A DNA stretch of 64,000 nt from a bacterium (GTDB taxonomy: Bacteria > 4484-113 > JAFGCY01). The DNA lies in contig JAGRNR010000014.1 of the NCBI GenBank assembly GCA_020440645.1, positions 1,294-65,293 on the forward strand, in the 5' to 3' direction. Under the pieces are notes generated by a model, which worked only from the letters and a program-made list of their open reading frames with translations, ran no database searches and was not told the DNA's origin. This document shows, piece by piece, positions 37,642 to 63,919 of the stretch (its first letter is position 1; every line of letters begins with the position of its first letter). Both the position numbers and the translations under genes were made by a program.

Positions 37642-37782
37642 GGGGTCACCCCAATGGTTTAGATGAGCCGATTATAGCGCTGGGAAACAGGCAGGGAGCT
37701 GAAAGCAGATAGCAGATATCAGAGCTGCCTGCCATCGCCTGCATTGGCACCATACAACTCCCTGTTCGCGAAATTCCCTTAT

Positions 37783-40668: not shown

Positions 40669-40760
40669 AACAAATCCAGTCAGCAGTAGCTGTCGCAATG
40701 ATTGGATGCGAAGCAGTATTCTAGCCTTATACGCAAATCCCGTGGGAATGAAAGAGTATA

Positions 40761-40859
40761 GCTGAAAGCAGATAGCAGGGATCAGACTCGGCACTTCGAT
40801 CCTTCTGCGGCAGTTCACCTGTCCGAGTCTGCTCCCTGCTCGCTGCTTTCTGTTCTCTG
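40761..40859. repeat. Imperfect long hairpin built from (A)GCAGA oligomer repeats (family A)
   Basis: Left arm is GCTGAAAGCAGATAGCAGGGATCAGACTCGGC. Right arm is GTCCGAGTCTGCTCCCTGCTCGCTGCTTTCTGTTCTCTG, its reverse complement. The loop is about 30 nt. Confidence 0.7.
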
Positions 40860-42632
40860 TTACGGTGCATACACGGCCCAGACCAGCTTGGTCTGGGTCC
40901 GGACTTCCTCGCCATTGCCGGCTGACAGGCTGAACAGCTGCGCAAGGGCCGGTTGGCCATCAAGCAGCATGAAGCTGGTCAGGCCCGCCGGATAATCCGG
41001 CAGCACGCCATCGATCTGCCAGTCCGCAGGGTCATTGCCAGGCATTGCGCTGCTCCAGTGGCTCAGCACCATTAGCTGGCCATCGAGCGCAGTGGATGCC
41101 TGCGGACTGCCATGCAGGAAGTGCAGCTCAGCCCCGCTGCCCGCCAGGCCCAGCAGCGGGTCCTGCCCCAGCCCGAGCATGTCGTAACTGCTGTATTTCC
41201 AGGACTCGAACAGCTGCGGATCGCCATCGAGGAATTCAGCCGTCCAGAAGCGCAGGCTGCCATCCTGCGCCGGATGCCCGTCCACGCAAGCCAGCAGCGG
41301 ATGCCCGTTCAGTTCAGCGGTGTACATCGCCGAGTCCCGCCCTTCGCCGAGCGTCAGGTGGACCCAGTCGTCCGAGGTACTCGGGAATGACGAGATGCTG
41401 CTGGCAACGCGGAACTCCCGCAGGTCGTTGCCGAGATCAACGCAGTAGCCGAAGGCCGGGCCGCCATTGATGCTGATCGGCGGCGTCGTCCCGGATGTGC
41501 CGGGGATGTCCGGCAGGTCCAGGTAGACGTCGCACACTGCCCAGGACAGGTCATCGGGACTTGATTTGAATGCATACAGCAGGGTGTGGAAGTTGTCACT
41601 GGGAGAGCTGCTGACCTGCATTGTGATTGCCGGCCCGCTGTCCAGCCGGCCCAGCCGGGGGTTGACAAGCCTGGGTGCGCCCATGAAAGCCTCGTTGCTG
41701 AAGGTTTCGTGCGGGTCACCGGCATAGTGCCAGACGAGTGTGGGCACTGCTGGGTTGCCAAAGGGCACGACATTGATGATACCGAAGCCACCGTCGAAGT
41801 CCGCCATGTCCAGGCCCTCCGCACCGAAGAACTGCCCCTCAAGCGAAAGCAGCTCCCAGTCCGGCAGGGCGGCGCCGTTGGCAGTGTTGCTGATTGCCAG
41901 CCGCACGCTTTCAGCCCCGGCGGCATCCCGTGTGGCAAACACGATCGCCGGCCGGCCGCCTATGATGCGCGCCTGCAGCGCCAGTGCGCCGTCAAAGGCG
42001 CTGCCGACATCACTTGCCGATTCCAGCTCCACGAAGCGCCAGCCGCTGGCGGGCCGGGTTGCCAGCTCGAAGTGGTCAAGCACCGGCTGTCCGCCACCCG
42101 TCGCCACGATGAAGGCCAGCAGCACATTCCCTGCGGGAGTTGTATAGCTTGCGCTGTCCGGCCATTCCAGCGCATCCTGCGGATTATCCGCAGCGCGCCA
42201 TTCCCAGCGATTGTCAGCCGGAAGGCCGATGCCAATAAAGCAGGACCCGGCCGCCGGTGTTATGCCCCAGTCCATCACCAGCTCAAGCGGTCCGCTGTCA
42301 GCCAGCGGCACGCGGTACACGGCCCACGCGAAATGCTGCGGAGCTGCTTCGCCGGAAGCTGGCGGCAGGAATCGGATGCCCTCGCCGTCCGTTGCCAGGT
42401 TGCCCTGTGGCAGCTCCATGCCCAGCCGCGCCCCCGCGATGAAGCCCAGGCTGTCGGATGCCACGCGCTCGATCAGCACGCCGGGGGCCGGGAGGTCGGC
42501 CGGTGTACCCGGAGCGCTGGGAAGATCCGTTGGCAGCGATGCTGACTGCGCGCTCACGCGGCTGCAGGAACAGTTCACTGCACAGGCCAGCCAGCCTGCC
42601 AGCAGCAGGCACGAAAGGGAAAACGGACGCAT
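40860..42632 (-). CDS. Hypothetical secreted protein (~590 aa) located between the two dockerin-propeller paralogs
   Basis: ORF 40860..42692. GAGGA RBS sits before ATG at 42632 (MRPFSLSCLLLAGWLACAVNC signal). No motif recognised. Pro/Gly/Ala-rich, predicted beta-rich. Confidence 0.5.
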   Translation of the reverse strand: MRPFSLSCLLLAGWLACAVNCSCSRVSAQSASLPTDLPSAPGTPADLPAPGVLIERVASDSLGFIAGARLGMELPQGNLATDGEGIRFLPPASGEAAPQHFAWAVYRVPLADSGPLELVMDWGITPAAGSCFIGIGLPADNRWEWRAADNPQDALEWPDSASYTTPAGNVLLAFIVATGGGQPVLDHFELATRPASGWRFVELESASDVGSAFDGALALQARIIGGRPAIVFATRDAAGAESVRLAISNTANGAALPDWELLSLEGQFFGAEGLDMADFDGGFGIINVVPFGNPAVPTLVWHYAGDPHETFSNEAFMGAPRLVNPRLGRLDSGPAITMQVSSSPSDNFHTLLYAFKSSPDDLSWAVCDVYLDLPDIPGTSGTTPPISINGGPAFGYCVDLGNDLREFRVASSISSFPSTSDDWVHLTLGEGRDSAMYTAELNGHPLLACVDGHPAQDGSLRFWTAEFLDGDPQLFESWKYSSYDMLGLGQDPLLGLAGSGAELHFLHGSPQASTALDGQLMVLSHWSSAMPGNDPADWQIDGVLPDYPAGLTSFMLLDGQPALAQLFSLSAGNGEEVRTQTKLVWAVYAP

Positions 42633-42743
42633 GTTCGAATCCTCAATCGCAGAGTAAGAAATACTACGTCCTGCAACTCGCAAAGCAGGCATTGTGAAGA
42701 TTGATCATGCGAAATGGCTTTCCGATCACGGACTGCCTGCCCA

Positions 42744-45590: not shown

Positions 45591-45695
45591 CTGCACACCT
45601 CGTTGTGGCTGCACATGGGCTCACCGCAGCCGGGAAACCTTCATATATATTAAGGTGAGTCGCCCCAGTGCGGCGGGATCGGGAGGAAATGGAAG

Positions 45696-46721: not shown

Positions 46722-47666
46722 GTGGAGGGCCACGGCCAGCAGAAACAGCATTCATCCAGCCCGCGCGTGGTGGTTGTCACCCGTCCGACGCGGCTGGAGG
46801 TCCTGCTTGAGCGGCAGGGCACGCTGGGCCAGGCGGCCTTCTACCAGCGCTCCCGCGGGCAGTCGATCGAACCGCTGCAGGCCGAGCATGAGCGCATGCA
46901 GTCCAGCCTGGACTTCGTGCTCGGGCAGCTGCCCGCCGAGCAGCGCCGCACGCATGTGGACCGCAGTGAGCTGGACCGCTTCCTGTTCGCCCCGGATGAC
47001 ATCGTGCTGGTGGTCGGCCAGGATGGCCTCGTTGCCAATACCGCGAAGTACCTCAGCGGCCAGCTTGTGGCCGGCATCAACCCGGACTTCGAGCTGTTCG
47101 AGGGCGTGCTCTGCCCGCACCACCCGGAGGTTGTCACCGAACTGCTCGCCTGGTGCGGCGGATCCGGCGAGGCGCAGTTCCGTATGGAACACCGCTCGAT
47201 GGCCCAGGCCCGGCGCGAGGATGGCCAGCAGCTGCTGGCGCTCAATGACATCTTCGTTGGGCACAGTTCGCACCAGTCCGCGCGCTACCGCCTGACGAGC
47301 GAGGGCCGCGAGGAACGCCAGAGCTCCTCCGGCATCATCTGCTCCACCGGCACCGGGGCCACCGGCTGGGCCCGCAGCATCGTGCTGCAGCGCGGCATCG
47401 AATCCCAGATGCCCGGACCACAGGAGCGCCTGCTGGCCTGGTTCGTGCGCGAGCCCTGGCCCTCCGTCTCAACCGGGGCCGAGCTGAACTTCGGTTTCTG
47501 CCTGGACGGCTATCCGCTGAAGGTAGTCAGTGAAATGGGCAGTGGCGGCGTGGTGTTCGCCGACGGCATCGAGACCGACCGGCTGGAATTCCTCGAAGGG
47601 CAGACTGTGGAGATCAGCCCGGCTGAGCATACGCTGAACCTCGTCCTGCCTGCAGCGGAGCACTGA
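46722..47666 (+). CDS. NAD-kinase / diacylglycerol-kinase-fold protein with degenerate catalytic motifs
   Basis: 314 aa, 4 nt after the SPFH gene. GQDG (instead of GGDG) is in VLVVGQDGLVANTAKYL, NE/D is in LNDIFVGH, and the C-terminal block is SSGIICSTGTGATGWARS (compare the DG…TptGSTAY block of NadK). Confidence 0.55.
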   Translation: MEGHGQQKQHSSSPRVVVVTRPTRLEVLLERQGTLGQAAFYQRSRGQSIEPLQAEHERMQSSLDFVLGQLPAEQRRTHVDRSELDRFLFAPDDIVLVVGQDGLVANTAKYLSGQLVAGINPDFELFEGVLCPHHPEVVTELLAWCGGSGEAQFRMEHRSMAQARREDGQQLLALNDIFVGHSSHQSARYRLTSEGREERQSSSGIICSTGTGATGWARSIVLQRGIESQMPGPQERLLAWFVREPWPSVSTGAELNFGFCLDGYPLKVVSEMGSGGVVFADGIETDRLEFLEGQTVEISPAEHTLNLVLPAAEH

Positions 47667-47835
47667 TCCAGTCAGGCTTCCCGCTGAAATCAGCCCCGGC
47701 TGGCCTCCCGGCGGGCGATCTGAGCCCCAGTTTTCCGTTTTACGTATTCCGCAGCATCGGTTGGATTTAAGTTAAATGCCGGGTACAACCAACGGTTGCA
47801 GCTGCCTCCAGGCCCTGCGATCGAGGAGCCAAATA

Positions 47836-50800
47836 ATGCGTTTCAATCGGACCAAGATCTACCTTCTGATGTTGTTGCTGATGCCGGCTGTGCTGGCCTC
47901 CTGTGGCGCAGGTGGCGGTAGCGCGGTTTCATCCCTTGATGCAGCTTCCCAGCCGTCGGTTCCACTGCAGGGTAATGCCCCGCTGGCAGATGGCCTGCCA
48001 GCCCTGGACCAGCTGCCCGAGCCATCGCGCAGTGCGATGCTCAGCGGCCCGGGATACTTCCCGGTGCCGATCCTCGAGCAGGGCGTGATGCTGCAGCGCA
48101 GTGGTTCGGTCGTCTCCGGCCCGCAGGGCATCGAGCTGGATGGCAGCGCAGGTGAGGCCTGGGTGCTGTTCGGGGTCTATGGCTTCGACGGTGACAGCCA
48201 GCCGAACGCCGTAATGGCGGAGGCCACCGATGTGCAGGGCAGTTTCCATATCGGCGTCACGCACTACGCCAGCGGACGCTGGGAGTGGAGCGCGCCCTTC
48301 ACCGGCGATGAGGAGCATGAGTACGAGCACGTGGCCCAGTACACCGTGGCCGACCAGTATGTCAGCGAGCGTGGCTTCCACTACATCGCCGTGCTGGCGC
48401 CGGAGGGCTCGAGCCTGCTGCTCAGCGGCCTGCAGCTCGGGGTGGACGGCGGTGACAACGCACCCGTCGCGCCGGACTACTTCGAGATCAGCAATGGTGA
48501 CGCCGGCTTCCACTTCTGGTGGTACCCTAGCCCGGACCATGACGACCCGGACTTCGCCGGCTACACCATGCAGCGCGCCCTGTGGCCCGGCACCGACTTC
48601 CAGGACCTCGGCCCGCTCTCACACGAGACCTTCTACCATGACGCTGCAGCCGACCCGGCCCTGCTCTACCGCTACCGTGTACGCGTGGCGGATGTAAGTG
48701 GCAACTCCAGCTGGGGTTATTCCAACACCCCGGTCAGCGTCAGTGGCGACAACTACCCGGTGCCGGCGCTGGAGATGCCGGCCGGGCCGCTCTACGGCGG
48801 GCAGATGGTGACATTCGACCTCAGCGGCAGCTATGACCCCGACGGCGAACCGCTCACGGAATACACGGTCCAGTTTGACAACACGAACGGCATGGGCGGC
48901 GTCGGCCCGCTCACCAGCACCGACCCGCAGATCAGCGTGCTGCTGCAGCCCGGCTGCTACGTGGTGCAGGCCGCGGCCAAGTCCACCGTCTACTGCCAGC
49001 CGATCGTTGACACGCTGAAGATCTACCCGGCCTGGCAGCCTGAGCCGCAGCTGGTGGCCGAGCCCGGCAGCGGGCAGTGGCGCATGCAGTCCAGCCGCAG
49101 CATCTACTGGCCACAGGGCGACGCAATCGTCACATTCTTCAATGACTACCTCGGCCCCGGCCTCGGCGCGCTCGTGCAGCATGCCGACGGCAGCCGGGAG
49201 GTCCTGCAGCTGCCCTACTACCTGTACGACATCGACTGGATCTCCGAGCCGGTGGTCTGGCAGGGCCAGCCCTATGTCGGCGTCGTGTCTGACAACGTGA
49301 TGCTACTGGCGACCATCGGGGCGGACGGCCTGCAGTGGATTGAAGGCGGCCTCGGCTACACCGGCTTTGTGAACATCGATCTCGTGGTGGACGGCGAGGA
49401 CCAGCTGCGGGTCTGCACCCTGAATGAATACAACCCCGGGGACTTCGAGGTGCTCGCGATCAATGCCGGCAACCCGCTCGACATCTACACCCTCGAGTTC
49501 ATGTCCAATTCCGACGGTCCGTTTGACGTGGAGTGGAACCCGGAATACGGCGGCTTCGAGCTGATTTACACCACGGTCGGCAGCATCCACTGGAACCGCA
49601 CCGATGAGGAGGGTGGCCTGGTTGTCGACGACTTCGTCGGCGCGGGCATCTTCGATTCACTGGACATGGAACTCCATGCGGACGGCAGCCCCGGCGTGAT
49701 GGGCCGCTCCGGTGGGTCCTTCGTCTACTTCTCCTTTGACGAGGGCACCGCCAGCTGGTCAGCACCCGAAGTGATCGAGCCGATTGGCCTGAACGGCAAG
49801 TCCGGCGACCTGCTGTTCGATGGCAACGACATGGCAGCCTTCTTCGGCCTGGCGGTGGGCCAGTCATCGCTATACCGCCGCAACGGCGGCAGCTGGGACC
49901 CGCAGACCGTCAACTGGGCGCTGCTTTCCGGCCAGCACTGCGCCATCGCCCAGTGGCCCGACGGCCGCGTGAACATCATCGACGGCACGGTGGGCGGCGC
50001 GATCTTCATCTCCGACTTCAATGAGGATGGCAGCCACCCCGCCCCGATTGAGGTTCCCTCCGTTTCCTGGGACGGCATTGACTTGAATGCCGTCGCCGGG
50101 GCTGACGGCATCCACGCCGTCTGGCGTGGTGACAACGGTGCGATCCATTACATCGCCGACGACGACGGCACCAATTGGAACGCCTCCACCGGCTTCGTCA
50201 GCAGCGATGCACTTGAGCTGATGGCGGACGAGAACGGCAAGGTGTTCGTCGGCAACACCCACGGTGCGACCGCCGACCTGTTCAGCTGGTTCGGCGGCGC
50301 CTGGCTGATCGAGGGCAGCTCCAACCGCTGGGGCAGCAGCCTGCCTTACCTCGCCGCCCAGCGTGATGCCCCCGGCGGACAGTTCATCGTGCAGGATGAC
50401 CTGCCAGTGCCGCCAGCGCTCAGGCACATGCATGACGACGGCGGCGGCTTCCTCGTGTTTGACAGCTACGATTTCGACACGATCCGGATTGACGAGGGGG
50501 TGTCCCTCTTCACGGGCGCCGGGCTGATCAGCTTCGTGCGCGGCGATGAGATCCTCGGTTCCAGTGGGCTGGTCGGCTTCATCTCCGCTGACGACCACAG
50601 CTATGCCCACCAGATACACGACTACCTTTACACCAGCAGCGTTGACCTGACGCGCGGCCGCCGGATGGATGCCTGCAACTACCTGACAGGCCCGTCAAAC
50701 TCGCACAGCGCATTCTGGGTCAGCGGACTCGAGGGCGGCGCTCCCGGCGTGACGCGCTTCCAGGGCAAGGCCTACAACGGCAAGTACAACGTCGACAGCA

Positions 50801-51087
50801 ACACTGCCCTGGCGGACCCGGTCGGCATCGGGGCCGGGCAGATGCAGCACACGCTGTCCGCGGCCCAGGCCTGGGGCCTGACTGCCGTGGCGATCTCCGA
50901 CCAGTTCGGCGGCGAGCAGGGCTGGCTGGAATGGAGCAACTTCGGTGAGTTCGAAAGCCTCGCACTGCCACCGATCGACATGGAATACACGATGATGCAC
51001 GAACTGGTTGTCGGTGCGGATGGCCGCTGGCACATCCTCTACCGTGACAAGCGCGACGGGGCGATCTATGAGATCAGCACCACATGA
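47836..51087 (+). CDS. Giant secreted lipoprotein, tandem paralog 1 (N-terminal domain, FN3-like, PKD-like, then BNR/Asp-box beta-propeller-like C-terminal region)
   Basis: ORF 47776..51087. GAGGAG RBS sits before ATG 47836 (MRFNRTKIYLLMLLLMPAVLASC lipobox). FN3-like motif is YRYRVRVADVSGNSS. PKD motif is FDLSGSYDPDGEPLTEY. Asp-box motifs are RRNGGSWD and ADDDGTNW. The conserved C-terminus is WHILYRDKRDGAIYEISTT. Confidence 0.75.
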   Translation: MRFNRTKIYLLMLLLMPAVLASCGAGGGSAVSSLDAASQPSVPLQGNAPLADGLPALDQLPEPSRSAMLSGPGYFPVPILEQGVMLQRSGSVVSGPQGIELDGSAGEAWVLFGVYGFDGDSQPNAVMAEATDVQGSFHIGVTHYASGRWEWSAPFTGDEEHEYEHVAQYTVADQYVSERGFHYIAVLAPEGSSLLLSGLQLGVDGGDNAPVAPDYFEISNGDAGFHFWWYPSPDHDDPDFAGYTMQRALWPGTDFQDLGPLSHETFYHDAAADPALLYRYRVRVADVSGNSSWGYSNTPVSVSGDNYPVPALEMPAGPLYGGQMVTFDLSGSYDPDGEPLTEYTVQFDNTNGMGGVGPLTSTDPQISVLLQPGCYVVQAAAKSTVYCQPIVDTLKIYPAWQPEPQLVAEPGSGQWRMQSSRSIYWPQGDAIVTFFNDYLGPGLGALVQHADGSREVLQLPYYLYDIDWISEPVVWQGQPYVGVVSDNVMLLATIGADGLQWIEGGLGYTGFVNIDLVVDGEDQLRVCTLNEYNPGDFEVLAINAGNPLDIYTLEFMSNSDGPFDVEWNPEYGGFELIYTTVGSIHWNRTDEEGGLVVDDFVGAGIFDSLDMELHADGSPGVMGRSGGSFVYFSFDEGTASWSAPEVIEPIGLNGKSGDLLFDGNDMAAFFGLAVGQSSLYRRNGGSWDPQTVNWALLSGQHCAIAQWPDGRVNIIDGTVGGAIFISDFNEDGSHPAPIEVPSVSWDGIDLNAVAGADGIHAVWRGDNGAIHYIADDDGTNWNASTGFVSSDALELMADENGKVFVGNTHGATADLFSWFGGAWLIEGSSNRWGSSLPYLAAQRDAPGGQFIVQDDLPVPPALRHMHDDGGGFLVFDSYDFDTIRIDEGVSLFTGAGLISFVRGDEILGSSGLVGFISADDHSYAHQIHDYLYTSSVDLTRGRRMDACNYLTGPSNSHSAFWVSGLEGGAPGVTRFQGKAYNGKYNVDSNTALADPVGIGAGQMQHTLSAAQAWGLTAVAISDQFGGEQGWLEWSNFGEFESLALPPIDMEYTMMHELVVGADGRWHILYRDKRDGAIYEISTT

Positions 51088-51136
51088 TGTAACCTTCGCG
51101 TTTCACATCCCGGCATGCCGGGTATCAGGACAGGTT

Positions 51137-51165
51137 GCCCCTCCGGGGCTCCTGCATTTTCTGTC
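51137..51165 (+). terminator. Putative rho-independent terminator after lipoprotein paralog 1
   Basis: GCCCCTCCGGGGC stem-loop followed by TCCTGCATTTTCTG. It is preceded by a second perfect palindrome, CCCGGCATGCCGGG (51108-51121). Confidence 0.5.
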
Positions 51166-51177
51166 CAGGAGTATTGA

Positions 51178-54100
51178 GTTGAATACCTATAGATACAGGT
51201 GGGCGCTGGGCGCCCTTGCATTGTTCACATGCATGGCCATGCTTGGATCCTGCGGTTCCGGCGGCGGCATGCAGCTTGAGCCTGTTTCCAGCACGGATGC
51301 AGCCGGGCAGGAGTCCTTCAACGGACTGCTGCCTGCCATTGATGAACTTCCCGAGGCTACGCATGAAGTCAGCATGCTCGGCCCCGGCTGGTACCCGGTG
51401 GACGTCACCGAGCAGGGTGTGCTGCGCCAGCGCAGTGCATCCGGCAGCGTCATGGTGCAGCCTGACGGCGTGCACATCACGGCGGATTCAGCCCCGGCCT
51501 GGGCGCTGTTCGCGGTCTACGGCTTCGACCACGACGCCTTCCCGAGCTCGGTGCGCGTCGAGACCGATGCCGATCCCGCCAGCTACTACGTCGGTGAGAC
51601 CAGCTACCAGGATGGCCGCTGGAACTTCGCCGGACCGTTCGGTGGCAACGCTGAATTCGAGTATCCCGAGGCCGGGACGGAGTACGACCCCGATAACCAC
51701 GTCAATCCGATGGGCACGCACTATGTTGCCATCGTGGCCCAGCCCGGCGTTGAGATGGTGCTCAGCGGGATCGAGCTCGGCGTGCACGGCGGCGAGAATG
51801 CCCCGATGGCCAACCTGCTGCTCGGGATTGACTCCGATTCCGGTGACCAGGGGATCGTGATCTCATGGCCGGATGCAGCAGGGTCCGACATTCCGGACTA
51901 CCTCGGGGCCTTCGTGGAACGCTCATTGTGGCCCTCCTTTGACTTCGAGACCATCGCTGGACCAGTGCTTGACAACCATTTCCTCGATTCGACGGTGGAG
52001 CTTGGCACAAAGTACCGCTACCGCGTCCGCTACGAGGACGTCAGTGGCAATGCAGGCCTGAGCCAGTCCATCTCGAGCGTTGCCACTGCTGGCGACCTGC
52101 CCCCCATCGCCGTGCTGGACATCCCGCATGGCCCGCTGTTCGGCCGCCAGACCGTCAACTTTGACATGTCCGGCTCCTTCGACCCGGATGGCGACGCGAT
52201 CACCGAATACCGCGTCGAGTTCGGCATCGGCAGCTTCAACACAGGCATCCAGCCCGTGTTCGGCCCGGCCAGCGACTTTGACATCGAGCTGCAGCCCGGC
52301 ACTTACTGGATCATGGCTGAGGTCACGGCGAACGGCAAGACCGGAGGCACGCTTGCCAAGCTGAAGGTCTACCCGGCCTGGCAGCAGACCGCGAGCATCG
52401 TCTCCCCCGGCCAGAAGGGCGAATGGCAGATGCAGCGCAACCGCGCGATCCACTTCCCGCCGGCCAACGAGATGCTGGTGTTCCACGATGCCCCGCTGCT
52501 GCCCGGTGTCGGCCTGCACATCACCGCGGCCGATGGCAGTATGCGCACGCTTGGCATCCCCTACATGCGCACCGGCGTGCAGTGGATCTCCGAACCGGTG
52601 ATCCACGATGGCAGGGCATGGATCGCCGTGCGTGATGACAACACCTTCTTCCTCGCTTCCTACGACGGCAACGAGTTCCGCTGGGCCGACAACTTCACGA
52701 TCGGTGTCGGTGGCGGCTATGAGCAGTGCGACCTGGTGGTGGACGGCGATGGCCGGCTGCGCATGTGCTACCTCTGGGAATTCAACCCCGGCGACTGGCG
52801 CATCGATGCCGTGGACGTGTTCGACTACGACGTCATCCCGGTCAGCCCGACAGCCAACACCAGCGGCTGGTTCGACGTGGAGTGGAACCCGGTGCACGGC
52901 ACATTCGACGTGATCTACCCGATGGTCGGCATCAGCATGTTCCAGCGCCTCGACCCGATCGGCGGCCCGGTTGACAACGAGATGGTGATCGCCATCGCGC
53001 CGAGCTTCGCCGACCTGGAGGTCGACCCGGCCAGCGGCCAGGCCTCCGTGCTTGAGCGCATCGGAACCCTGCAGCTGTACATCCCCTACGATGACGGCGC
53101 TGGCATGTTCGGCCCGCCGGAGATCATTGACAACGCAGCTGACAACACCGAGTTCGCTGACCTGGCCTTCATTGATTCCGACCCGACCGTGTTCTTCGGG
53201 CTCAACGCGCTGCCCTCGAACCTGTACCGCCGCAATGGCGGCAGCTGGGACCCCATCAAGGCCACCTGGGCACCCTCTTCCGGCCAGCACTGCGCCATCG
53301 CCGCCTGGCCTGACGAGACCGTGCAGATCGTGGACGGTACCAACAACGGCGGGATCTTCCTCGCCTCCGTCGATGCCTCTGACAACACCGAGGAGCTGGA
53401 CTACATCGAGGGCAGTGTCTACCAGGGCAACAGCCTGCACGCCGTGGCCGGTAGTGACGGGCTGCATGCCTACTGGATCATCGGCAACGAAGGCGTGCAC
53501 GTGATCGGCAGTGCCGACGGCAAGAACTGGGTGCCTGCGGCTGACAACGGCCCGTCATTCGGTGCCGACCTGATGGCCGACCGGGACGGCGAGGTGTTCC
53601 TCTCCACTTCCTGGGGGGCCAACCACGAACTGCACAGCTGGACCGGCGCGGCCTGGTTGTTCGAGAGCAGCTCGGACACCTTCAACGCATCCCAGGCCTG
53701 GTTCTGTGCGCAGGACAATGTGTTCGGCGGGCAGTGGTGGGCGCATGACCACAGTGTCGCCCCGGCCCGCATCCGCCGCATGCATGATGACGACGGCATG
53801 GCCCTGCTGCCGGACTCCTACGAGTTCGACATCACGAACGTGTTCGAGGGCACCGGGCTGCTGACACTGGGTGGCTACACCTCCTTCGTGCTGACCGGCA
53901 ACGGCTCCGAGCAGGACGGCAGCGTCGGCTTCCTTGACAACGACACCGCGAGCTACAGTGAGATCATCAAGGGCTTCACCGTCAGTGATGAAATCAGCTG
54001 GACCAATGGCCGCCAGCTGGACGCCTGCAACTACATCGGCGATCCCGGCCTGCCGAAGGAGGCCTACTGGGCCAGCTTCAAGTCATTCGACCTCGGGGCC

Positions 54101-54439
54101 ACCCGGATTGAGGGCCTCAACTTCGTTGGCGACATGTCCATTGAGCATGTCGAGGGCTTCGACAGCCTGCTGGACACCCAGACCTTCTCCGGCGCCCTGA
54201 CCACCGTCAGCGCGGCCCAGGCCAGGAGCAACACCGCCGTGGCCGTGCTGGACCAGTTCTTCGGTGACTGGCACCGCATGGAGTGGAGCAACTTCGGTGA
54301 CTTCGAGGAGATCCCCTCGCCGGGCATCGACTGGTCCATGACCAGCATGCACGAGCTGGTGGTCGGCGAGGACGGCCAGTGGCACCTGCTGTACCGCGAC
54401 ATGCGCGACGGCTACATCTACGTGATCAGCACTACATAG
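51178..54439 (+). CDS. Giant secreted lipoprotein, tandem paralog 2 (same architecture)
   Basis: ORF 51008..54439. AGGAG sits 8 nt before TTG 51178 (…NTYRYRWALGALALFTCMAMLGSC lipobox). YRYRVRYEDVSGNAG, FDMSGSFDPDGDAITEY, RRNGGSWD and SADGKNW are present. The C-terminus is WHLLYRDMRDGYIYVISTT. Confidence 0.7.
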
Positions 54440-54545
54440 GTAGCAGAAAGCAGAGAGCAGGGAGCAGACTCGACGTGCGAACAGCGTGGTCTGCTTTCTG
54501 CTTTCTGCTCTCTGCTTTCTGCTCTCTGCCCCCTGCTCCCAGCAA
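54440..54545. repeat. Family A hairpin (AGCAGAAAGCAGAGAGCAGGGAGCAGACTCG … GTCTGCTTTCTGCTTTCTGCTCTCTGC) directly after the paralog-2 stop
   Basis: Arms of tandem GCAGA/TCTGC pentamer-hexamers, complementary in several registers. Begins 1 nt after TAG 54437-54439. Confidence 0.7.
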
Positions 54546-54633
54546 CCTGCAACCTGATCCCTGTATACTCAACACAGGGAACTGCAGTAGATGCAGCGGC
54601 TGGCAGGAGGCCATGCCCCCGTCGGAGTTCTGC

Positions 54634-57600
54634 ATGAGACTTGTGGGATCCGGCACCGCATGGTCGGTCGCCGTACTGATCGTCCTGGCAGCCTGCTGCC
54701 TGCTTCCGTCCTGCTCTGGTCGGCAGCCGGACATGTCCGCGCCAGCCCAGCAAGTGGACCTGACCCCCGGCCCGGAGCCGGCGGCTCCTGTGGCGGATGG
54801 CCTGCCTCAGCTGGCCTCCCTGCCGGATGCACAGCATTCCGCAAGCTACCTCGGCCAGGGTTGGTTCCCCGTCCCGATTCTCGAGCAGGGAGTGCTCATT
54901 GCAGCCAGTCCCGGCGTAAGCTCTGCAGCGCAGGGTGTTGTGATCAATGCTGCGGGCGGCCAGTCCGCCTGGGCAGTGTTCGGCATTTACGGCTTTGATG
55001 GCGACAGCTTTCCCGCTGCCCTGGCCTGCGAGCTGACAACCCTCAGTGGCGACTACGCACTGGCTGCCAGCCGCTACCTGGACGGCCGCTGGGAGGTGGC
55101 CGGACCATTCACGGATGACGCGCAGTTCGAATATGCTTATGCAGGTGGGGGCGCAGATCCGCGCAATCTCCTCTCCGGCCGCGGCTGCCACTACGTGGCG
55201 GTGATTGCCAGTCCCGGCAGCTCGCTTGAGCTCAGTGGCCTGCAGCTTGCGGTGGACGGCGGGCAGGACGGGCCCGCAGCTGTTTCGTTCCCGCAGGGCA
55301 TCCGCAGCAGCCTTGGGGTACAGCTGGTCTGGCAGGCATCAGCGGACGGCCGCAACCCGGACTTCGAGGGTTACATCGTGGAGCGGGCCGACTGGCCCGG
55401 CACCACCTTCGCCGCCGTGAGCGAACCCCTGCATGGACTGGACTGGCTCGACACGGATCTGCAGGAAGACCGGCATTACCGCTACCGCATCCGCAGCTTT
55501 GATGTGGCGGGAAACTCCTCCAGCGGCCCATACTCAACCGTCCTGGGTAGTTTTGACAACCTTCCGCCGGTCTGCGTCATGGACATCCCCACCGGCCCGT
55601 TGTACGGCGCACAGCAGGTGACGATTGACCTTTCCCGCTCCTTCGACCGCGACAATGACAGCTTCACCGACTACACCCTGCTCTTTGGCAACGACCCGTT
55701 TGACATCGGAGTCGGGCCGCTCTCGAACACTGATGGCGCTTTCAGCGTACTGCTGCAGCCCGGCTGCTACCATGTCATCGGAGTTGTCACCGCCGGAGCC
55801 AACATCGGCACCTGTGTCTCTGAGCTGAAGATCTATCCGCAGTGGGAGAATGAGGCCCAGCTGATCGCATCTGCTCCGCCGGTTGCCCCGGTGCTGGGAT
55901 CGCCTTCCGGCACATACCTGCCGGCAATCAACGGCGTTGCCACTTTCGGGCTGGAGCCGGTACTGCCCGGCCTTGGCCTGCTGCTGCAGCCCGCGGACAG
56001 CCCGGCCCGGCTGCTGCGCATCGTGCCACCGCGCTTCGGCATCGACGGCATCTCAGAGGCCACTCAATGGAACGGCCTGGCTATCTGTGCCGCCGTTGAC
56101 GGATCGAACGCCTACATCGCCTATACGGACGGGGAAAACTTCGATTGGCTGGAAGTCGGGCGCGGCTTTGTGAAGGGCAGCCGCCTCGACCTGGTGGTGC
56201 CTGCCTCAAGCCCACCTTACCTGTGCTTCATCGAGGAGAATTTCATGCCTTCCTCGCGCCTGCTGGCATACGCGAGCATCGGCAGCAGCACTCCCCTCGA
56301 GCTGGTGCCCGTGTTTGAAGGCGACTATCCCTTCGACGTGGAATGGAATGCAGCGCAACAGGGCTTTGACATCCTCTATGGCCAGCCCGGCGCGACAAGG
56401 CTGCGGCGCTGCGATGCCAGTGGCAACATGCTGCTGGAACGCACGATCGCCTTCACCACACCGCAGAAGCTGGAGCTTGAGATTGATCCGGCAACGGGGA
56501 ATCCCGTCATCCTCTGGCGCAGCAGCGGTGGCACGGCGATCTACACGCAGTATGACAACGATTCCGACAGCTTCCTGCCGGGAGAGCCGGTTGACCCGCT
56601 GCTGCTGGCCTCTCTGGGCGAGCAACTGGCGCTTGCCGGTGGCCTGCCGGTTGTGTTCATGGGCAGTCCGGGCCAGCCCGCCGGGCTGTACCACCGCACG
56701 GGCGGCAGCTGGCAGCGGATGGCGGCGGACTGGTCCCCGCTCTCGGGCACGGACGGTTCACTGGCTGCCCGGCCGGACGGAACGCTGCGCGTGCTGGACA
56801 GTGATGACGCGATGACCAGCTGGCTCGTTGACATCATGCCCGGTGCAACGCAGTCGGTGGTTGACAGCCTGCCCCCGACGGGCCGGCAGGGGATGGACCT
56901 GAATGCGGTGGCTGGCAGCGACGGGCTGCATGCCATCTGGTGTGCGGATGGCGAGAGCCGCCACTACCGCAATCCGGAGGATGGCAGTGGCTGGCAACCC
57001 GTCAACCTGCTTGATGCCTGCCAGTCGCAGGACCTGATGGCGGACCAAAGCGGATCCGTGCTGCTATCCACCCGAGTTGACAACGCATCCTTCCTGCTGA
57101 AGTGGAACGGGGCGGACTGGGACGCGATCTGGTTCACGCTCAGCAACCTTGACCAGTCCAATCCCTGGATGTGCATGCAGTCCAATTCACCCGCCCCGCA
57201 GTGGCTCTACCTTGAGGATGACCTGCCGGATGACCGGTTGCACTACGTGACGGACTATGGCACCGGCCTGCAGGAATCCACAAGCTCAATCTATCCGGAT
57301 CAGGTGATGGAAGGGGCCGGTGTATACAGCGGCAACTTCATGGTGTCAATCGTGGCGCTTGGCAACGGCAGCTACAGGGACGGACGCATCGGCGTGCTCA
57401 ACAAGCCCCACAACTCGGTGGATGTGCTGCTCAATGCTTCCGCCAACATTCCGGATGAGGCCAGCGGACTGCAGGGCCGCCAGCTTGATGCCTGCATGGG
57501 CAAGCACAGCAGCGGCAATGTGCAGACGGTGTTCTACAGTTCAGTTTCCGCATTCCAGCAGGATGCCACCAGGCTGTGCGGCTTCAGCTACAACGGGGAC

Positions 57601-57903
57601 TTCAGCCTGCAGGAGCAGGCGCAGTTCCGCTTCGCCTTCGGCAACCGAGACTGGCAACGCCTGCGCACAGTCAGTGCCGTCCAGGCCTGGGGCCTGACCT
57701 GCGTCGGGCTGATCGACCAGGCCTTCGCAGATGGAGCGAAGCTGGAGTGGGACGACTTCGGCGACTGGGAGCAGCTGTCGCTGCCCCCGGTAGACTTCGC
57801 CCGCAGCAACATGCATGAGCTGGTGGTTGGCAACGACGGCCGCTGGCACATGCTGTTCCACGACCTGCAGGACGGCGGGATCTACGTGATCAGCACTACG
57901 TAG
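54634..57903 (+). CDS. Giant secreted lipoprotein, tandem paralog 3 (same architecture)
   Basis: ORF 54379..57903. The likely start is ATG 54634 (MRLVGSGTAWSVAVLIVLAACCLLPSCSG lipobox), because the upstream 85 codons overlap the hairpin repeat 54440-54545. YRYRIRSFDVAGNSS, IDLSRSFDRDNDSFTDY, HRTGGSWQ and PEDGSGW are present. The C-terminus is WHMLFHDLQDGGIYVISTT. Confidence 0.7.
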   Translation: MRLVGSGTAWSVAVLIVLAACCLLPSCSGRQPDMSAPAQQVDLTPGPEPAAPVADGLPQLASLPDAQHSASYLGQGWFPVPILEQGVLIAASPGVSSAAQGVVINAAGGQSAWAVFGIYGFDGDSFPAALACELTTLSGDYALAASRYLDGRWEVAGPFTDDAQFEYAYAGGGADPRNLLSGRGCHYVAVIASPGSSLELSGLQLAVDGGQDGPAAVSFPQGIRSSLGVQLVWQASADGRNPDFEGYIVERADWPGTTFAAVSEPLHGLDWLDTDLQEDRHYRYRIRSFDVAGNSSSGPYSTVLGSFDNLPPVCVMDIPTGPLYGAQQVTIDLSRSFDRDNDSFTDYTLLFGNDPFDIGVGPLSNTDGAFSVLLQPGCYHVIGVVTAGANIGTCVSELKIYPQWENEAQLIASAPPVAPVLGSPSGTYLPAINGVATFGLEPVLPGLGLLLQPADSPARLLRIVPPRFGIDGISEATQWNGLAICAAVDGSNAYIAYTDGENFDWLEVGRGFVKGSRLDLVVPASSPPYLCFIEENFMPSSRLLAYASIGSSTPLELVPVFEGDYPFDVEWNAAQQGFDILYGQPGATRLRRCDASGNMLLERTIAFTTPQKLELEIDPATGNPVILWRSSGGTAIYTQYDNDSDSFLPGEPVDPLLLASLGEQLALAGGLPVVFMGSPGQPAGLYHRTGGSWQRMAADWSPLSGTDGSLAARPDGTLRVLDSDDAMTSWLVDIMPGATQSVVDSLPPTGRQGMDLNAVAGSDGLHAIWCADGESRHYRNPEDGSGWQPVNLLDACQSQDLMADQSGSVLLSTRVDNASFLLKWNGADWDAIWFTLSNLDQSNPWMCMQSNSPAPQWLYLEDDLPDDRLHYVTDYGTGLQESTSSIYPDQVMEGAGVYSGNFMVSIVALGNGSYRDGRIGVLNKPHNSVDVLLNASANIPDEASGLQGRQLDACMGKHSSGNVQTVFYSSVSAFQQDATRLCGFSYNGDFSLQEQAQFRFAFGNRDWQRLRTVSAVQAWGLTCVGLIDQAFADGAKLEWDDFGDWEQLSLPPVDFARSNMHELVVGNDGRWHMLFHDLQDGGIYVISTT

Positions 57904-58005
57904 TTGGCAGAGATCAGAAAGCAGGGGGCAGACTCGACGTATGAACATGTGAGTCTGCTCCCTGCTTTCTGCTATCTGCTCTCTGCTTTCCGCTTTCTGC
58001 TCTCC
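57904..58005. repeat. Family A hairpin directly after the paralog-3 stop
   Basis: GCAGAGATCAGAAAGCAGGGGGCAGACTCGACG … GAGTCTGCTCCCTGCTTTCTGCTATCTGCTCTCTGCTTTCCGCTTTCTGCTCTCC. Confidence 0.7.
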
Positions 58006-58089
58006 TTTAGCCGCCGGACATCCAGGGCGGGGATCACGCAGTGATCCACGGGCGGGGATGTCGAACCGGCCGGCGGCTAAAATGTAGAG

Positions 58090-59151
58090 ATGAGCAACAT
58101 CCCCGCACTTGACAACTACCGCCTGCTGGGCAACAGCGGCCTGGCCGTTTCCCCGCTCTGCCTCGGCACGATGACCTTCGGCACCGAATGGGGCTTCGGC
58201 GGCGACCGCGAGAATTCCCGCAAGCTGTTCGAGCTCTACACCGGGGCCGGTGGCAACTTCCTCGACACCGCGATCAACTACAACAAGGGCACCAGCGAGG
58301 AGTACCTCGGCGAGTTCGTCAAGGGCAGCCGCGAACGCTACGTGATCGCCACCAAGTTCACCTTCGGCACCCGCGAAGGCGACCCCAACAGCGGTGGCAA
58401 CCACAGGAAGAACATCATCCAGAGCGTGGACGAGAGCCTGAAACGCCTCGGCCTGGAATACATCGACCTCTACTGGCTGCATGTCTGGGAGTACCGCACG
58501 CCGGTCGAGGAGCTGATGCGCGCGATTGACGACCTCGTGCGCATGGGCAAGATCCTCTACTTCGGCTTCAGCGACACCCCGGCCTGGGTGGTCTCGCGTG
58601 CCAATGCCGTCGCCGAACTGCGCGGCTGGACACCGGCCGTGGCCGTGCAGATGGAGCACAGCCTGATCGAACGCACCTACGAAGCCGAGATACTGACGAT
58701 GGCCCGCCACCTGAACATCGCCGTCACACCCTGGAGCCCGCTCGGGGCCGGCGTGCTGACAGGCAAGTACCTTGGCAACGAAGCAGGTGAAGGCGAAGGT
58801 ACCCGCAGTGGTGCCGTCAACCGTAGCGGCAAGCTCAATGATCGCAATACCGCCATTGTGCAGGCCGTGGTGGACATGGCGCAGCAGTGCGGCAGGTCAC
58901 CGGCGCAGGTGGCGCTCAACTGGCTGCTGTGCCAGCCGGGTGTGACAGCTCCGATCATCGGCGCACGCACACCGGAGCAGCTGGCTGACAACCTCGGAGC
59001 CTGCGGCTGGCGCCTGGACGACGAGCAGCTGGCGAAACTGAACGAAGTCAGCAACGTCGACCGGCCCTTCCCGCACAGCTTCATCCACAACCCGCGCGTG
59101 CAGGCCGCAATCAGCGCCCAGACGAATGTGGAGAGCCGGCTGCCTGAATAG
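58090..59151 (+). CDS. Aldo/keto reductase family oxidoreductase
   Basis: 353 aa. LGNSGLAVSPLCLGTMTFG…GGNFLDTAINYNKGTSEEYLGEF…RERYVIATKF…IDLYWLHVWEY is the classic AKR signature. Confidence 0.85.
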   Translation: MSNIPALDNYRLLGNSGLAVSPLCLGTMTFGTEWGFGGDRENSRKLFELYTGAGGNFLDTAINYNKGTSEEYLGEFVKGSRERYVIATKFTFGTREGDPNSGGNHRKNIIQSVDESLKRLGLEYIDLYWLHVWEYRTPVEELMRAIDDLVRMGKILYFGFSDTPAWVVSRANAVAELRGWTPAVAVQMEHSLIERTYEAEILTMARHLNIAVTPWSPLGAGVLTGKYLGNEAGEGEGTRSGAVNRSGKLNDRNTAIVQAVVDMAQQCGRSPAQVALNWLLCQPGVTAPIIGARTPEQLADNLGACGWRLDDEQLAKLNEVSNVDRPFPHSFIHNPRVQAAISAQTNVESRLPE

Positions 59152-59305
59152 TGGTCAGTGGTCAGTTGTCAGTGGTCAGGAGCTGTTGGCAGAATGAGAA
59201 ACAGAATCAGCAGAATACAGGTGTCGAATCCTCGGACCTCCTCCTGTTTGTCATTCTGATTCTGCAATCTGCTTCTTCCTGACCACAGACCACTGACTAC
59301 TGATT
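59151..59305. repeat. Composite palindromic element between convergent genes
   Basis: Order is (GTGGTCA)x4 heptamers, then a CAGAAT-repeat hairpin (GCAGAATGAGAAACAGAATCAGCAGAATACAGG … CCTGTTTGTCATTCTGATTCTGCAATCTGC), then inverted (TGACCAC)-like heptamers. The whole 155 nt is self-complementary. Confidence 0.65.
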
Positions 59306-59972
59306 ACTTCCTTCTTATGAAACACAGTCCGTCGAAGTTCTTGCGGCCGACGGTCTGGATCACCGTGGCCTCCAGCCTGTCATCCTCCGCCGCCAGCCTG
59401 AGCGCGGCGCGGGTGCCCGCCACCGAGGGGTCCTCATCGCTGCCGGTCGCCACCTGTCCGCCGCGCACCACGTTGTCAATCACGATCAGCGCCCCGCTGC
59501 GGCTGTGCTCGGTGGCCCATTTCAGGTAGTTGACATTGTTTACCTTGTCAGCATCGATGAAGGCCATGTCGAAGGGCTCACAGCCCTGTGCCGCCAGCTG
59601 CTCCAGTGAATCCACGGCTGCTCCTCTGATCAGCTGCACCCTGTCCGCCAGTCCGGCACGCTCGAAGTTGGCCTGCGCCACATCGGCATGTTTGTCGTCA
59701 ATTTCAAGGGTGACCAACCTGCCGTCCGTAGGCAGCGCGCGTGCCAGGTGGATCCCACTGTAACCGGCCAGGGTGCCGACCTCTAGGATGCGCCGTGCGC
59801 CGATCGCCCCGGCCAGCACCTGCATCAGCCGCGCCTGCAGCGGCGAGAGGCTGATCTGTGGCAGCCCGGCCTCGTCGGCACTGCGCTGCACGGCCTCCAG
59901 CACGGGGTCGGCGGGGGCCATCAGGGCCTCCATGAAGTCTGTGGATTCGCTCCAGAGATGTGTGTCTGACAT
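59304..59972 (-). CDS. Class I SAM-dependent O-methyltransferase (caffeoyl-CoA OMT / family 3 type)
   Basis: 222 aa. SAM motif I is ILEVGTLAGYSGIHLA. Metal-binding DADK is in MAFIDADKVNNVNYL. Confidence 0.8.
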   Translation of the reverse strand: MSDTHLWSESTDFMEALMAPADPVLEAVQRSADEAGLPQISLSPLQARLMQVLAGAIGARRILEVGTLAGYSGIHLARALPTDGRLVTLEIDDKHADVAQANFERAGLADRVQLIRGAAVDSLEQLAAQGCEPFDMAFIDADKVNNVNYLKWATEHSRSGALIVIDNVVRGGQVATGSDEDPSVAGTRAALRLAAEDDRLEATVIQTVGRKNFDGLCFIRRK

Positions 59973-62708: not shown

Positions 62709-62868
62709 GGTCTTCCTCCCAGTGAGACGGATCTCATATTATCGTGAATGTATTCACGATATACCAGATGATACCGCCATTTAGCGGGAAGTGTGCTGGC
62801 CGCGTGGAAAATCAATTCACTTGTCTGGCTCATTGCTCACTCTTCATTGCTCATTGCTACGCTTCTCC

Positions 62869-63717: not shown

Positions 63718-63850
63718 AGGAGCTCAGGCCCACGGCCTGACAGGAGGCCAATCCCACGGATTGGCAACTGCCTTTTGCCTTTTGCCACCTGCCTACTGCC
63801 TTGTGCCTACTAAAGCGGTCCTTGGGACCGCATACCTGTCAGGCCATGGG

Positions 63851-63919
63851 CCTGACCTCCACTGACTACAGACCACTGACCACTGACCACTGACCACTGA
63901 CCACTGACCACTGATTGCC
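63851..63919. repeat. Tandem heptamer array (TGACCAC)x~9
   Basis: CCTGACCTCCACTGACTACAGACCACTGACCACTGACCACTGACCACTGACCACTGACCACTGATTGCC. The same heptamer is also at 25551-25571 and inverted at 59151-59180. Confidence 0.75.

Follow-up and report, generated by a model that had tools for sequence, protein, structure and literature searches.

Three consecutive genes for lipoproteins of about 1,080 residues, two of them followed by long hairpins, raise the question of what the proteins do and whether genes and hairpins form one unit. A sequence-only reading of the locus had taken them for a locally amplified, glycosidase-like cassette with a conserved 3′ RNA structure. The explanation that we favour, and consider somewhat likelier to be right than wrong, is that lineage-restricted binding lipoproteins would be encoded by an ancestral array, and that the hairpins would belong to a genome-wide class.

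Three paralogous lipoprotein genes

The window, by which we mean the whole stretch of 64,000 nt that was analysed, contains three consecutive co-linear ORFs; the host of the array is an uncultured wastewater bacterium.

47836..51087, + strand: g1, 1083 aa, lipobox LASC with Cys23
51179..54439, + strand: g2, 1086 aa, TTG start, lipobox LGSC
54634..57903, + strand: g3, 1089 aa, ATG start, lipobox LPSC

The long ORF tracks of g2 and g3, beginning at 51008 and 54379, are upstream extensions; independent gene calls on identical contigs place the starts at 51179 and 54634, in agreement with the prediction that the true starts lie internally. The g3 product is a 100% match to GenBank KDL29_06115. Alignment of the three products runs from end to end (39–41% amino acid identity for g1-g2, 34% for both g1-g3 and g2-g3), bearing out the description of three diverged same-strand paralogs with identical architecture. 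Each has a signal peptide and, as had been seen, a lipobox Cys, and the other motifs pointed out in the sequence were all located: the first N-terminal block reads GVYGFDGD, AVYGFDHD and GIYGFDGD across the three paralogs, HY(I/V)A(V/I) and YRYR(V/I)R...GN(S/A) occur in all of them, the PKD-type DxSxSxDPDG motif is degenerate in g3 (DLSRSFDRDN), and the C-terminal tail WHxL(Y/F)xDxxDGxIYxISTT-stop is common to g1, g2 and g3.

Domain architecture and predicted fold

The domain order assigned to g1 is as follows.

signal peptide with lipobox LASC, Cys23
aa 23-48: disordered tether
aa ~61-210: CBM-like jelly roll
aa ~211-300: FN3
aa ~301-400: PKD/Ig-like domain
aa ~401-740: 7-bladed beta-propeller
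aa ~741-1083: 7-bladed beta-propeller

The FN3 domain, already named in the sequence-only reading, is real, since the family profile matched titin FN3 with E=2e-9, and its positions ~199–296 were matched by thousands of multi-FN3 proteins in an exhaustive profile search. The PKD/Ig-like domain is plausible, with weak support for the earlier PKD assignment from Pfam PKD_4, which scored below threshold in 5 of 35 family members (best E 4.8e-4). The full-length structure model (pLDDT 85, pTM 0.72) is all-beta, and its 55 strands past residue 405 make up 14 blades, so that the C-terminal region is predicted to consist of two 7-bladed beta-propellers. Foldseek matched the model to tandem-propeller proteins, such as the ROS1/Sevenless ectodomains, DDB1 and Elp2.

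A BNR propeller with Asp-box motifs had been proposed for this C-terminal region of more than 600 aa; the propeller fold is upheld by the model, but the BNR identity is not. The canonical Asp-box S-x-D-x-G-x-x-W occurs in none of g1, g2 and g3, and even the looser motif that had been used has one match in g1, two in g2 and none in g3. BNR, GH and PL families had no Pfam or NCBIfam match in any of the 35 family members, one of which matched Reg_prop faintly (E 0.095). With two 7-bladed propellers instead of the 6-bladed sialidase propeller, and with neither Asp-boxes nor BNR matches, a sialidase identity is not supported, and neither is the glycosidase-like label. No catalytic domain or motif was detected in the family proteins, nor was any enzyme, phage or defence signal found for the paralogs.

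Binding as the predicted function

In structural comparison, lectins were the best-scoring propeller matches, and the N-terminal domain is CBM-like. The cell-surface binding role suggested from the sequence is judged plausible on this basis: as modelled, the paralogs are most likely non-enzymatic, multivalent binding proteins displayed at the cell envelope, the target of which is probably bound rather than cleaved, with glycans as the leading guess for the ligand. The lipid-anchored Cys and the flexible tether would hold the jelly roll, FN3, Ig/PKD-like domain and two propellers on the membrane. Mean pairwise identity is 39–41% for the N-domain and PKD-like domain versus 23–28% for the propellers, and because the stalk (jelly roll, FN3, PKD) is conserved while the propellers are diversified, we propose that each paralog would present a distinct binding specificity.

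For the propellers, the closest solved fold is that of the multivalent, seven-bladed PLL-family lectins (PLL, PLL2, PLL3 and PHL of Photorhabdus; BP39L, CV39L), a likeness of fold alone, as no sequence similarity was found between the propellers and PLL lectins or PDB chains. The PLL lectins are soluble single propellers of about 350 aa, whereas each paralog is a lipoprotein of 1,080 aa whose two propellers sit behind a stalk of jelly-roll, FN3 and PKD domains. Extracytoplasmic FN3/Ig domains combined with large ligand-capturing propellers are also found in the ROS1/Sevenless ectodomains and in the periplasmic glycan sensors with two propellers that belong to hybrid two-component systems of Bacteroides; ROS1 gave the top Foldseek matches (E 7e-15, with low TM-scores of 0.1–0.35), but the paralogs carry neither a kinase nor a signalling module and are unrelated to these proteins in sequence.

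The paralogs could instead be structural or protein-binding parts of the envelope that bind no glycan, either BamB/PQQ-type scaffolds or adhesins that make contact between cells or with prey. We consider this unlikely given the lectin matches and the CBM-like N-domain, neither of which is decisive. Slightly less probable again is that they are polysaccharide-degrading enzymes, namely glycosidases with GH74-like tandem propellers or polysaccharide lyases of the propeller type with a CBM, a proposal that stands near the 'glycosidase-like cassette' of the first reading. It conflicts with the absence of Asp-boxes and of GH, PL and BNR matches (0/35 members), with propellers that lack a conserved acidic catalytic pair and share only Trp, Gly, Pro and Thr as invariant residues across the family, and with enzyme propellers scoring clearly below lectin propellers.

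Heptamer-repeat hairpins

The intergenic elements considered here are listed below.

37691..37723, + strand: degenerate half-copy of the family-A heptamer array, intergenic
40761..40860, − strand: family-A hairpin directly 3′ of the stop of an unrelated gene (40860..42692, − strand) for a predicted lipoprotein of 610 aa
51109..51163, + strand: g1-g2 spacer, two short GC stems CCCGGCATGCCGGG and GCCCCTCCGGGGC, then ATTTTCTG; not a family-A hairpin
54437..54543, + strand: family-A hairpin 1, stem starting at the g2 stop codon (predicted −63 kcal/mol, z −6.7); 4 AGCAGAR units, core GCAGACTCG, loop, 7-8 pyrimidine-rich units
57901..58004, + strand: family-A hairpin 2, from the g3 stop codon (predicted −56.8 kcal/mol, z −6.8)
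58007..58082, + strand: 76-nt GC-rich palindrome TTTAGCCGCCGG...CCGGCGGCTAAA, just upstream of the start codon of an aldo/keto reductase

Each paralog had been said to end in an (AGCAGA)n hairpin. Within the trio this is true of g2 and g3 only, and the family-A unit is a heptamer (AGCAGAR / YCTGCT-type) rather than a hexamer. The GC-rich terminator placed behind g1 is at best a weak candidate: its two stems are of 5 bp each, the fold is no better than that of shuffles (z −1.07), and the spacer was not called in a terminator scan.

The hairpins are not part of the paralog family but one sequence family of genome-wide intergenic heptamer palindromes after stop codons. Period-7 arrays are in excess (10 observed versus 0.6 in shuffles) and nearly all intergenic, and other heptamer units fold into equally strong hairpins at other intergenic sites, including beside tRNAs. 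The heptamer hairpins have no U-tract and were not called by the terminator scan; since folding is about equally strong for the sense and the antisense strand, an RNA-level role is not favoured over a DNA-level one. Their most likely role would be the formation or protection of transcript 3′ ends without a U-tract.

We consider it improbable, more so than either alternative for the proteins, that each paralog owns and moves with its hairpin as a cis element specific to the cassette, be it an RNA with a regulatory or stabilising role or a recombination site resembling the attC of integrons. Such an element would fit the hairpins directly after paralog stops in the window, in the related strain CP060262 and in the distant relatives L006 and L007, where the proteins are only 45–49% identical, the unusually high similarity between g2 and g3 over their final ~20 nt and the left hairpin arm, and the fact that the two strain-variable genes of the window (the 610-aa gene and g3) each consist of an ORF with its hairpin. 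Against it, family-A hairpins are missing from the arrays of 6–7 genes of the same protein family elsewhere, equivalent hairpins are built from many other heptamer units, inspection of the hairpin ends revealed no attC-type GTTRRRY core, and Rfam gave no match. A 3′ structure of the cassette's own is not supported, in view of the absence of family-A hairpins from those arrays and of their presence behind unrelated genes; in CP060262, which lacks the 610-aa gene, the same hairpin lies directly 3′ of a PQQ-propeller gene. Of the conserved 3′ RNA structure first proposed, the conservation of position at this locus in L006 and L007 stands, and its specificity to the cassette does not.

Dispersed stable palindromes 3′ of genes, as in the REP/BIME elements of E. 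coli and the U-tract-less ('I-shaped') terminators of actinobacteria, can protect mRNA ends and recombine. REPs, which are linked to RAYT transposases, are imperfect palindromes of 20–40 nt and contain no tandem heptamers, whereas the hairpins of the window are about 100 nt long and built of heptamer repeats. The hairpins are also analogous to the cyanobacterial STRR (short tandemly repeated repetitive) sequences, hairpin-forming 7-bp repeats proposed as transcript stabilisers (PMC2670836). Like the arrays in the window, STRR are intergenic tandem 7-bp units with several unit sequences per genome; they belong to another phylum and differ in unit sequence from the arrays described here (AGCAGAR, CTGACCA, GCTCATT and others), which, unlike STRR, are usually arranged as two inverted arms right at stop codons.

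An ancient, lineage-restricted array

A search of 5.8 billion clustered proteins gave no more than 33 relatives, which without exception are 1,018–1,122 aa long and have no precomputed Pfam domain. The exhaustive profile search gave about 60 full-length representatives, the remaining matches among the 150 listed touching FN3/PKD positions only. Family proteins are about 1,050–1,100 aa and lipoproteins by signal; nearly all full-length members have a signal peptide followed by Cys-Gly/Ser and the conserved ...IST(T) end. Genome matches were confined to MAGs that bear the name UBP7, UBP7_A, 'bacterium' or 'Planctomycetales bacterium', and the family is restricted to one uncultured lineage (isolate names UBP7/UBP7_A).

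The syntenic locus carries one copy in L009, two in L003, L006, L007 and CP060262, and three in the window, and tandem pairs are present even in relatives with g1 orthologs only 46–49% identical. A second locus of the same species has at least 7 further paralogs, second loci hold at least 6–7 consecutive ones, and the genome total is at least 10 family genes in tandem arrays. Nucleotide identity among g1, g2 and g3 is evenly spread (49–55%), third-codon positions are near saturation, and no gene-conversion tracts were found among the three. Rather than 'locally amplified', the trio is thus ancient, given also its 34–41% amino acid identity and the tandem pairs of distant relatives; it is an ancestral multi-gene array, probably trimmed to one, two or three copies by lineage.

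An origin of the three copies in faulty assembly or in a very recent amplification, as the three versus two copies in closely related assemblies might suggest, can practically be dismissed, since at only about 50–55% nucleotide identity (longest common run 20–21 nt) an assembler cannot collapse or expand copies, an ENA scaffold and a separate Logan assembly both show the three-gene arrangement with 100% identity, and g3 has relatives of its own in other organisms (P0008, 41% identical, with a homologous signal peptide).

Strain variation at the locus

The strain CP060262 is 96–98% identical and lacks g3.

54503..58089: strain-variable segment comprising the remainder of hairpin 1 together with g3, hairpin 2 and the palindrome; in CP060262 it is replaced by 20 nt that form a single chimeric hairpin

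The left breakpoint lies within the g2 hairpin, at 54502/54503, and CP060262 has one chimeric hairpin at the junction. Judging from the relatives, the event was probably a loss and not a gain; in a neighbour-joining tree, g3 was not robustly paired with the second gene of L007. Being repeated DNA, the heptamer hairpins would act as recombination breakpoints. The 76-nt palindrome, absent from CP060262, L006 and L009, is present in both the window and the distant relative L007.

Three ancient tandem paralogs in the window

The ORF listing shows three plus-strand ORFs one after another (47776-51087, 51008-54439 and 54379-57903), and the tracks of the second and third extend back across the 3' end of the preceding gene. 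The sequence-only reading had argued that the true starts of these two genes are internal, and independent gene predictions from contigs that match the window exactly agree, placing them at 51179 and 54634:

47836-51087, + strand: g1, ATG start, 1083 aa
51179-54439, + strand: g2, TTG start, 1086 aa
54634-57903, + strand: g3, ATG start, 1089 aa

The three translations are co-linear end to end and share the C-terminus ...DGxIYxISTT, with protein identities of 39-41% for g1-g2 and 34% for both g1-g3 and g2-g3. The earlier description of three paralogous genes is largely correct as a whole, and the motifs it quoted were found in all three proteins, g2 and g3 departing from them slightly. The ENA scaffold is 100% identical to the window across the 23 kb compared, and a separate Logan assembly holds the identical three-gene set. 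At the nucleotide level g1-g3 are 49-55% identical and share no run longer than 20-21 nt; with the concordant assemblies, this excludes that the copies arose in assembly or were amplified recently. The three copies are thus real rather than a collapsed repeat, and the supposed local amplification gives way to an ancient tandem array. The proposed search for gene conversion was run on the paralogs in sliding windows; nucleotide and third-position identity were flat and no conversion tracts were found among g1-g3, the sole alike stretch of g2 and g3 being their last ~20 nt.

Domain architecture of the lipoprotein family

The lipoboxes of g1, g2 and g3 read LASC, LGSC and LPSC, respectively, and nearly all full-length family members carry a signal peptide or hydrophobic stretch followed by Cys-Gly/Ser, so that the proteins bear the signal of bacterial lipoproteins and are predicted to be lipidated. 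An AlphaFold2 model built from a 35-sequence alignment (pLDDT 85, pTM 0.72) is all-beta and runs from the lipobox Cys through a disordered tether and three beta-sandwich domains to 55 strands forming two 7-bladed propellers. The family is lineage-restricted and has a CBM-like/FN3/Ig/double-propeller architecture. Conservation within the family is highest in the N-domain and the PKD-like domain (39-41% mean pairwise identity) and lowest in the propellers (23-28%).

Searches of Pfam, NCBIfam, PHROGs and PADLOC gave no significant family for g1-g3, only weak PKD and fn3 matches. The jelly-roll fold resembles known CBMs; Pfam scans returned no CBM family, the nearest being F5_F8_type_C (E 0.081, 1 of 35 members). 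The second segment is a fibronectin type III domain: a three-paralog profile matches titin FN3 with E=2e-9 at residues ~217-300, and multi-FN3 proteins in thousands match profile positions ~199-296, while Pfam fn3 itself recognizes one member of the 35 (E 2e-4). A beta-sandwich is predicted at ~301-400, the PKD-like region, where PKD_4 was detected among the three paralogs in g2 only (E 0.079; 13.5 bits, cutoff 27) and weakly in five of the 35 family members (best E 4.8e-4).

The propellers had been read as BNR/sialidase or glycosidase-like, a label that has to be withdrawn. A regex scan for the Asp-box (S-x-D-x-G-x-T-W between strands 3 and 4 of the blades), in strict and in loose form, found none in g1, g2 or g3; Pfam BNR, sialidase and GH profiles matched neither the three paralogs nor any of the 35 members, with NCBIfam also at zero; and the model lacks the six-bladed propeller with catalytic Arg triad, Tyr and Glu that marks sialidases. 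These three results leave a BNR/Asp-box sialidase-like propeller unsupported and remove a misleading annotation.

The predicted propellers have the seven-bladed fold of PLL-family lectins. Those lectins are marked by W-motif repeats whose sugar-binding residues, conserved, lie between the blades; phmmer with each propeller half against all PDB sequences retrieved no chain of PLL, PHL or BP39L at a cutoff as loose as E<=10. The link to lectins is one of fold only, since neither half has any sequence-level PDB relative. Foldseek against the PDB returned the ROS1/Sevenless ectodomains, DDB1 and Elp2 as tandem-propeller matches.

We infer that the proteins are putative non-catalytic, multivalent envelope binding modules with diversified propellers. 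Glycans would be the leading guess for the ligand, judging from the lectin-like and CBM-like folds of the model. A role as protein scaffold or adhesin, against which the CBM-like and lectin-like folds weigh without being decisive, is unlikely though worth keeping in mind. An enzymatic role, suggested at the outset by the glycosidase-like reading and opposed by the missing GH and sialidase profiles and catalytic fold, is decidedly unlikely. Read as binding modules, the family, whose architecture is now confident at fold level, gains a hypothesis that can be put to the test: multivalent binding at the surface.

Family size and distribution

Among 5.8 billion clustered proteins we found 33 relatives, all about 1,020-1,120 aa, and when 1.84 billion representatives were searched exhaustively with a profile, ~60 full-length representatives (counted at 50% clustering) emerged, the remainder of the 150 matches listed matching via FN3/PKD positions only. 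Every genome match is to a MAG that bears the name UBP7, UBP7_A, 'bacterium' or 'Planctomycetales bacterium'. The UBP7_A label is an isolate name only and calls for caution: genomes of GTDB UBP7 proper ('Ca. Bimafiota') measure 0.8-1.4 Mb, against 4.1 Mb here. The family has neither a Pfam nor an NCBIfam model and is unannotated, and it accounts for ~1% of coding capacity in a lineage of uncultured activated-sludge bacteria.

The triplet of the window is a small array relative to one found in the complete genome of a sister strain, CP060262:

CP060262 524058-543240 (locus L010), and likewise L011: no fewer than 6-7 family genes in a row on one strand, products of 1022-1065 aa with 26-30% identity to g1, no heptamer hairpins between the genes

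By tblastn, all genes in L010 and in a second such locus, L011, are family members, the array stretches being ~19 kb each with 6-7 tandem family genes. A further copy lies at 2.94 Mb of CP060262, so that one 4.1-Mb genome holds at least 10 paralogs.

Copy number and strain polymorphism at the syntenic locus

The locus was compared with its syntenic counterparts in CP060262 (L003) and in three relatives (L006, L007 and L009), where the gene order is transketolase-like, PQQ propellers, Band_7, NAD-kinase-like, array, aldo/keto reductase and O-methyltransferase. The array holds one copy in L009, two in L003, L006 and L007 and three in the window, and array copy number thus varies between strains and genera. 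Left of g3, CP060262 and the window form a syntenic block with 96-98% identity; CP060262 has g1 and g2 only, followed at once by the reductase gene. Blastn against CP060262 delimited two segments present only in the window:

40860-42743: window-only segment holding a 610-aa gene
54503-58089: window-only segment holding g3, the second hairpin and a GC-rich palindrome

Both indels coincide at their breakpoints with heptamer hairpins. At the g3 junction CP060262 has a single chimeric hairpin, its left arm like the hairpin after g2 in the window and its loop and right arm like the one after g3, and the 610-aa gene is placed exactly between the stop codon of a PQQ-propeller gene and a hairpin of the same family. 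Divergence between the window and CP060262 is a mosaic, 88% to 99% identity per kb, as is typical of recombining populations, which suggests recombination between diverged strains.

The copy numbers at the syntenic locus, the existence of relatives of g3 itself and a palindrome arrangement common to the window and L007 suggest, though the trees do not firmly back either direction, that g3 was lost in CP060262 rather than gained in the window. The family member P0008 is 41% identical to g3, with a clearly homologous signal peptide, and the order hairpin, GC palindrome, reductase is common to the window and L007; orthology of g3 to the second gene of L007 is not firmly supported in a bootstrap NJ tree. 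No remnant of g2 or g3 was found in the one-copy locus L009, where the gap is occupied by a small ORF for an apparent zinc-ribbon membrane protein.

As side observations, the 610-aa gene (minus strand, 40860..42692; absent from CP060262) encodes a predicted lipoprotein without family match, and L006 and L007 have proteins of similar size (587-588 aa) at a neighbouring position. Identity between the window and CP060262 reaches its minimum beside the indel of the 610-aa gene and downstream of that at g3.

A genome-wide class of heptamer hairpins

Each of the three genes had been described as ending in an (AGCAGA)n hairpin. The real unit is a heptamer, with AGCAGAR units in the purine-rich arm and their complement in the pyrimidine-rich arm (family A), and such hairpins follow g2 and g3; g1 has none. 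Its 3' spacer, where a GC-rich terminator had been proposed, has two 5-bp GC stems that fold no better than shuffles (z -1.07) and is negative in the terminator scan. Four family-A sites occur in the window:

54437-54543: hairpin starting at the g2 stop codon, -63 kcal/mol, z about -6.7
57901-58004: hairpin starting at the g3 stop codon, -57 kcal/mol, z about -6.7
40761-40860, minus strand: hairpin directly after the stop codon of the unrelated 610-aa gene
37691-37723: degenerate half-copy of the array

TRF reported about 20 period-7 rows, and our own scan found 10 strict period-7 arrays, where shuffled sequence gives 0.6 (at most 3). Nearly all of them fall in intergenic DNA, which is ~7% of the window. 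Heptamer arrays of other units are found between genes at 17077-17124, 25465-25568, 25836-25933, 34040-34140, 36496-36529, 59150-59308, 62828-62858 and 63768-63914, with units GTCTGAA/GCAGGCC, TCAGACT/CTGACCA, AGCAATG/GCTCATT, AACCAGC, AGTGGTC/CTGACCA, CTGCCTT and CCACTGA. They typically consist of two inverted arms folding at up to -80 kcal/mol, and some adjoin tRNA genes.

The hairpins are therefore members of a heptamer palindrome class found across the genome. A 3' RNA structure specific to the lipoprotein cassette, as first proposed from the hairpins abutting g2 and g3, is very improbable, since a hairpin also follows the unrelated 610-aa gene, other sites abound and the L010 array has zero heptamer hairpins, all of which make the hairpin a general intergenic element of the genome.

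Rfam identified only three tRNAs in the whole window and nothing at the hairpins. The hairpins do not fit an intrinsic (Rho-independent) terminator, the stems being very stable with no U-tract or T-run after them; the sole call of the consensus terminator scan is an inner loop stem (54474-54488). Integron cassettes were discarded, as inspection found no GTTRRRY at the hairpin ends, and the scatter of hairpins among core genes on both strands also opposes an attC array. A metagenome scan for the hairpin core gave 98 matches, by rough estimate about chance level, two of them in a heptamer-hairpin context.

In L006 and L007, whose g1 orthologs are only 46-49% identical, the orthologous genes also have a hairpin after the stop codon, built on the same core (GCAGACTCG/GCAGACTGA - loop - TCTGC repeats). 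Farther downstream, L007 and L009 keep the CTGACCA-type hairpin that separates the aldo/keto reductase gene from the O-methyltransferase gene. In all eight cases, which are not independent of one another, the purine-rich arm comes first (5') when read along the sense strand of the gene upstream; this conservation of position and orientation favours a function tied to the gene 3' end. Sense and antisense stabilities, compared as a sign of RNA-level selection, showed no consistent asymmetry. The likeliest role of the hairpins would be in transcript 3'-end formation or stabilisation.

The closest described analogue is the cyanobacterial STRR heptanucleotide repeats, which form hairpins and have been proposed to stabilise transcripts (PMC2670836). 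Like STRRs, the repeats of the window are tandem 7-bp units, intergenic and of several unit types per genome; unlike STRRs, which occur in heterocyst-forming cyanobacteria with STRR1-3 units, they have different units and a host of the UBP7_A/'Planctomycetales' MAG lineage. A side lead that may be of wider interest is the occurrence of STRR-like hairpins in a non-cyanobacterial lineage, at the boundaries of genes that vary between strains; the palindrome class may merit separate work, both as a kind of terminator and as a hotspot where gene content changes between strains. The full proposal, that they are lineage-wide, positionally conserved 3'-end terminators or stabilisers outside cyanobacteria and also recombination joints for gain and loss of surface-lipoprotein genes between strains, is highly doubtful; if true, such joints and more than 10 diversified lectin-like paralogs would form a contingency system varying the cell-surface binding repertoire.

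Neighbouring elements and genes

A 76-nt GC-rich palindrome (TTTAGCCGCCGG...CCGGCGGCTAAA; 58007-58082) lies directly upstream of the aldo/keto reductase start codon and folds at -44 to -49 kcal/mol. It is also found in the distant relative at L007 16868-16945 and is missing in CP060262, L006 and L009, a patchy, MITE/REP-like distribution. Genomes without it have a TAGAAT/TAAAAT box ~7 nt before the reductase ATG, a position that hints at a leaderless mRNA.

Large predicted lipoproteins crowd the minus strand at 37783-45614 and 60078-62708. Two are PQQ_2/BamB-type propellers of ~950-1010 aa and one, of 876 aa, has no family match; in each of them a signal peptide precedes Cys-Gly/Ala (lipobox). 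G+C drops to 54% at 38001-40000, inside the 1011-aa PQQ-propeller gene, compared with about 64% elsewhere. Between Band_7 and g1, a 314-aa gene (46722-47666, + strand) has a NAD-kinase-like match far below cutoff (E 3.6e-6), and the pair of Band_7 and a 310-aa gene is found upstream of the array in all five syntenic loci. Finally, a small ORF beginning MDRLKCP(Y/H)CGNVIG, absent from the window, precedes the reductase in relatives without g3 (L009 13416-13715, a 99-aa gene call; L006 ~16660-16960), and its product looks like a zinc-ribbon membrane protein.
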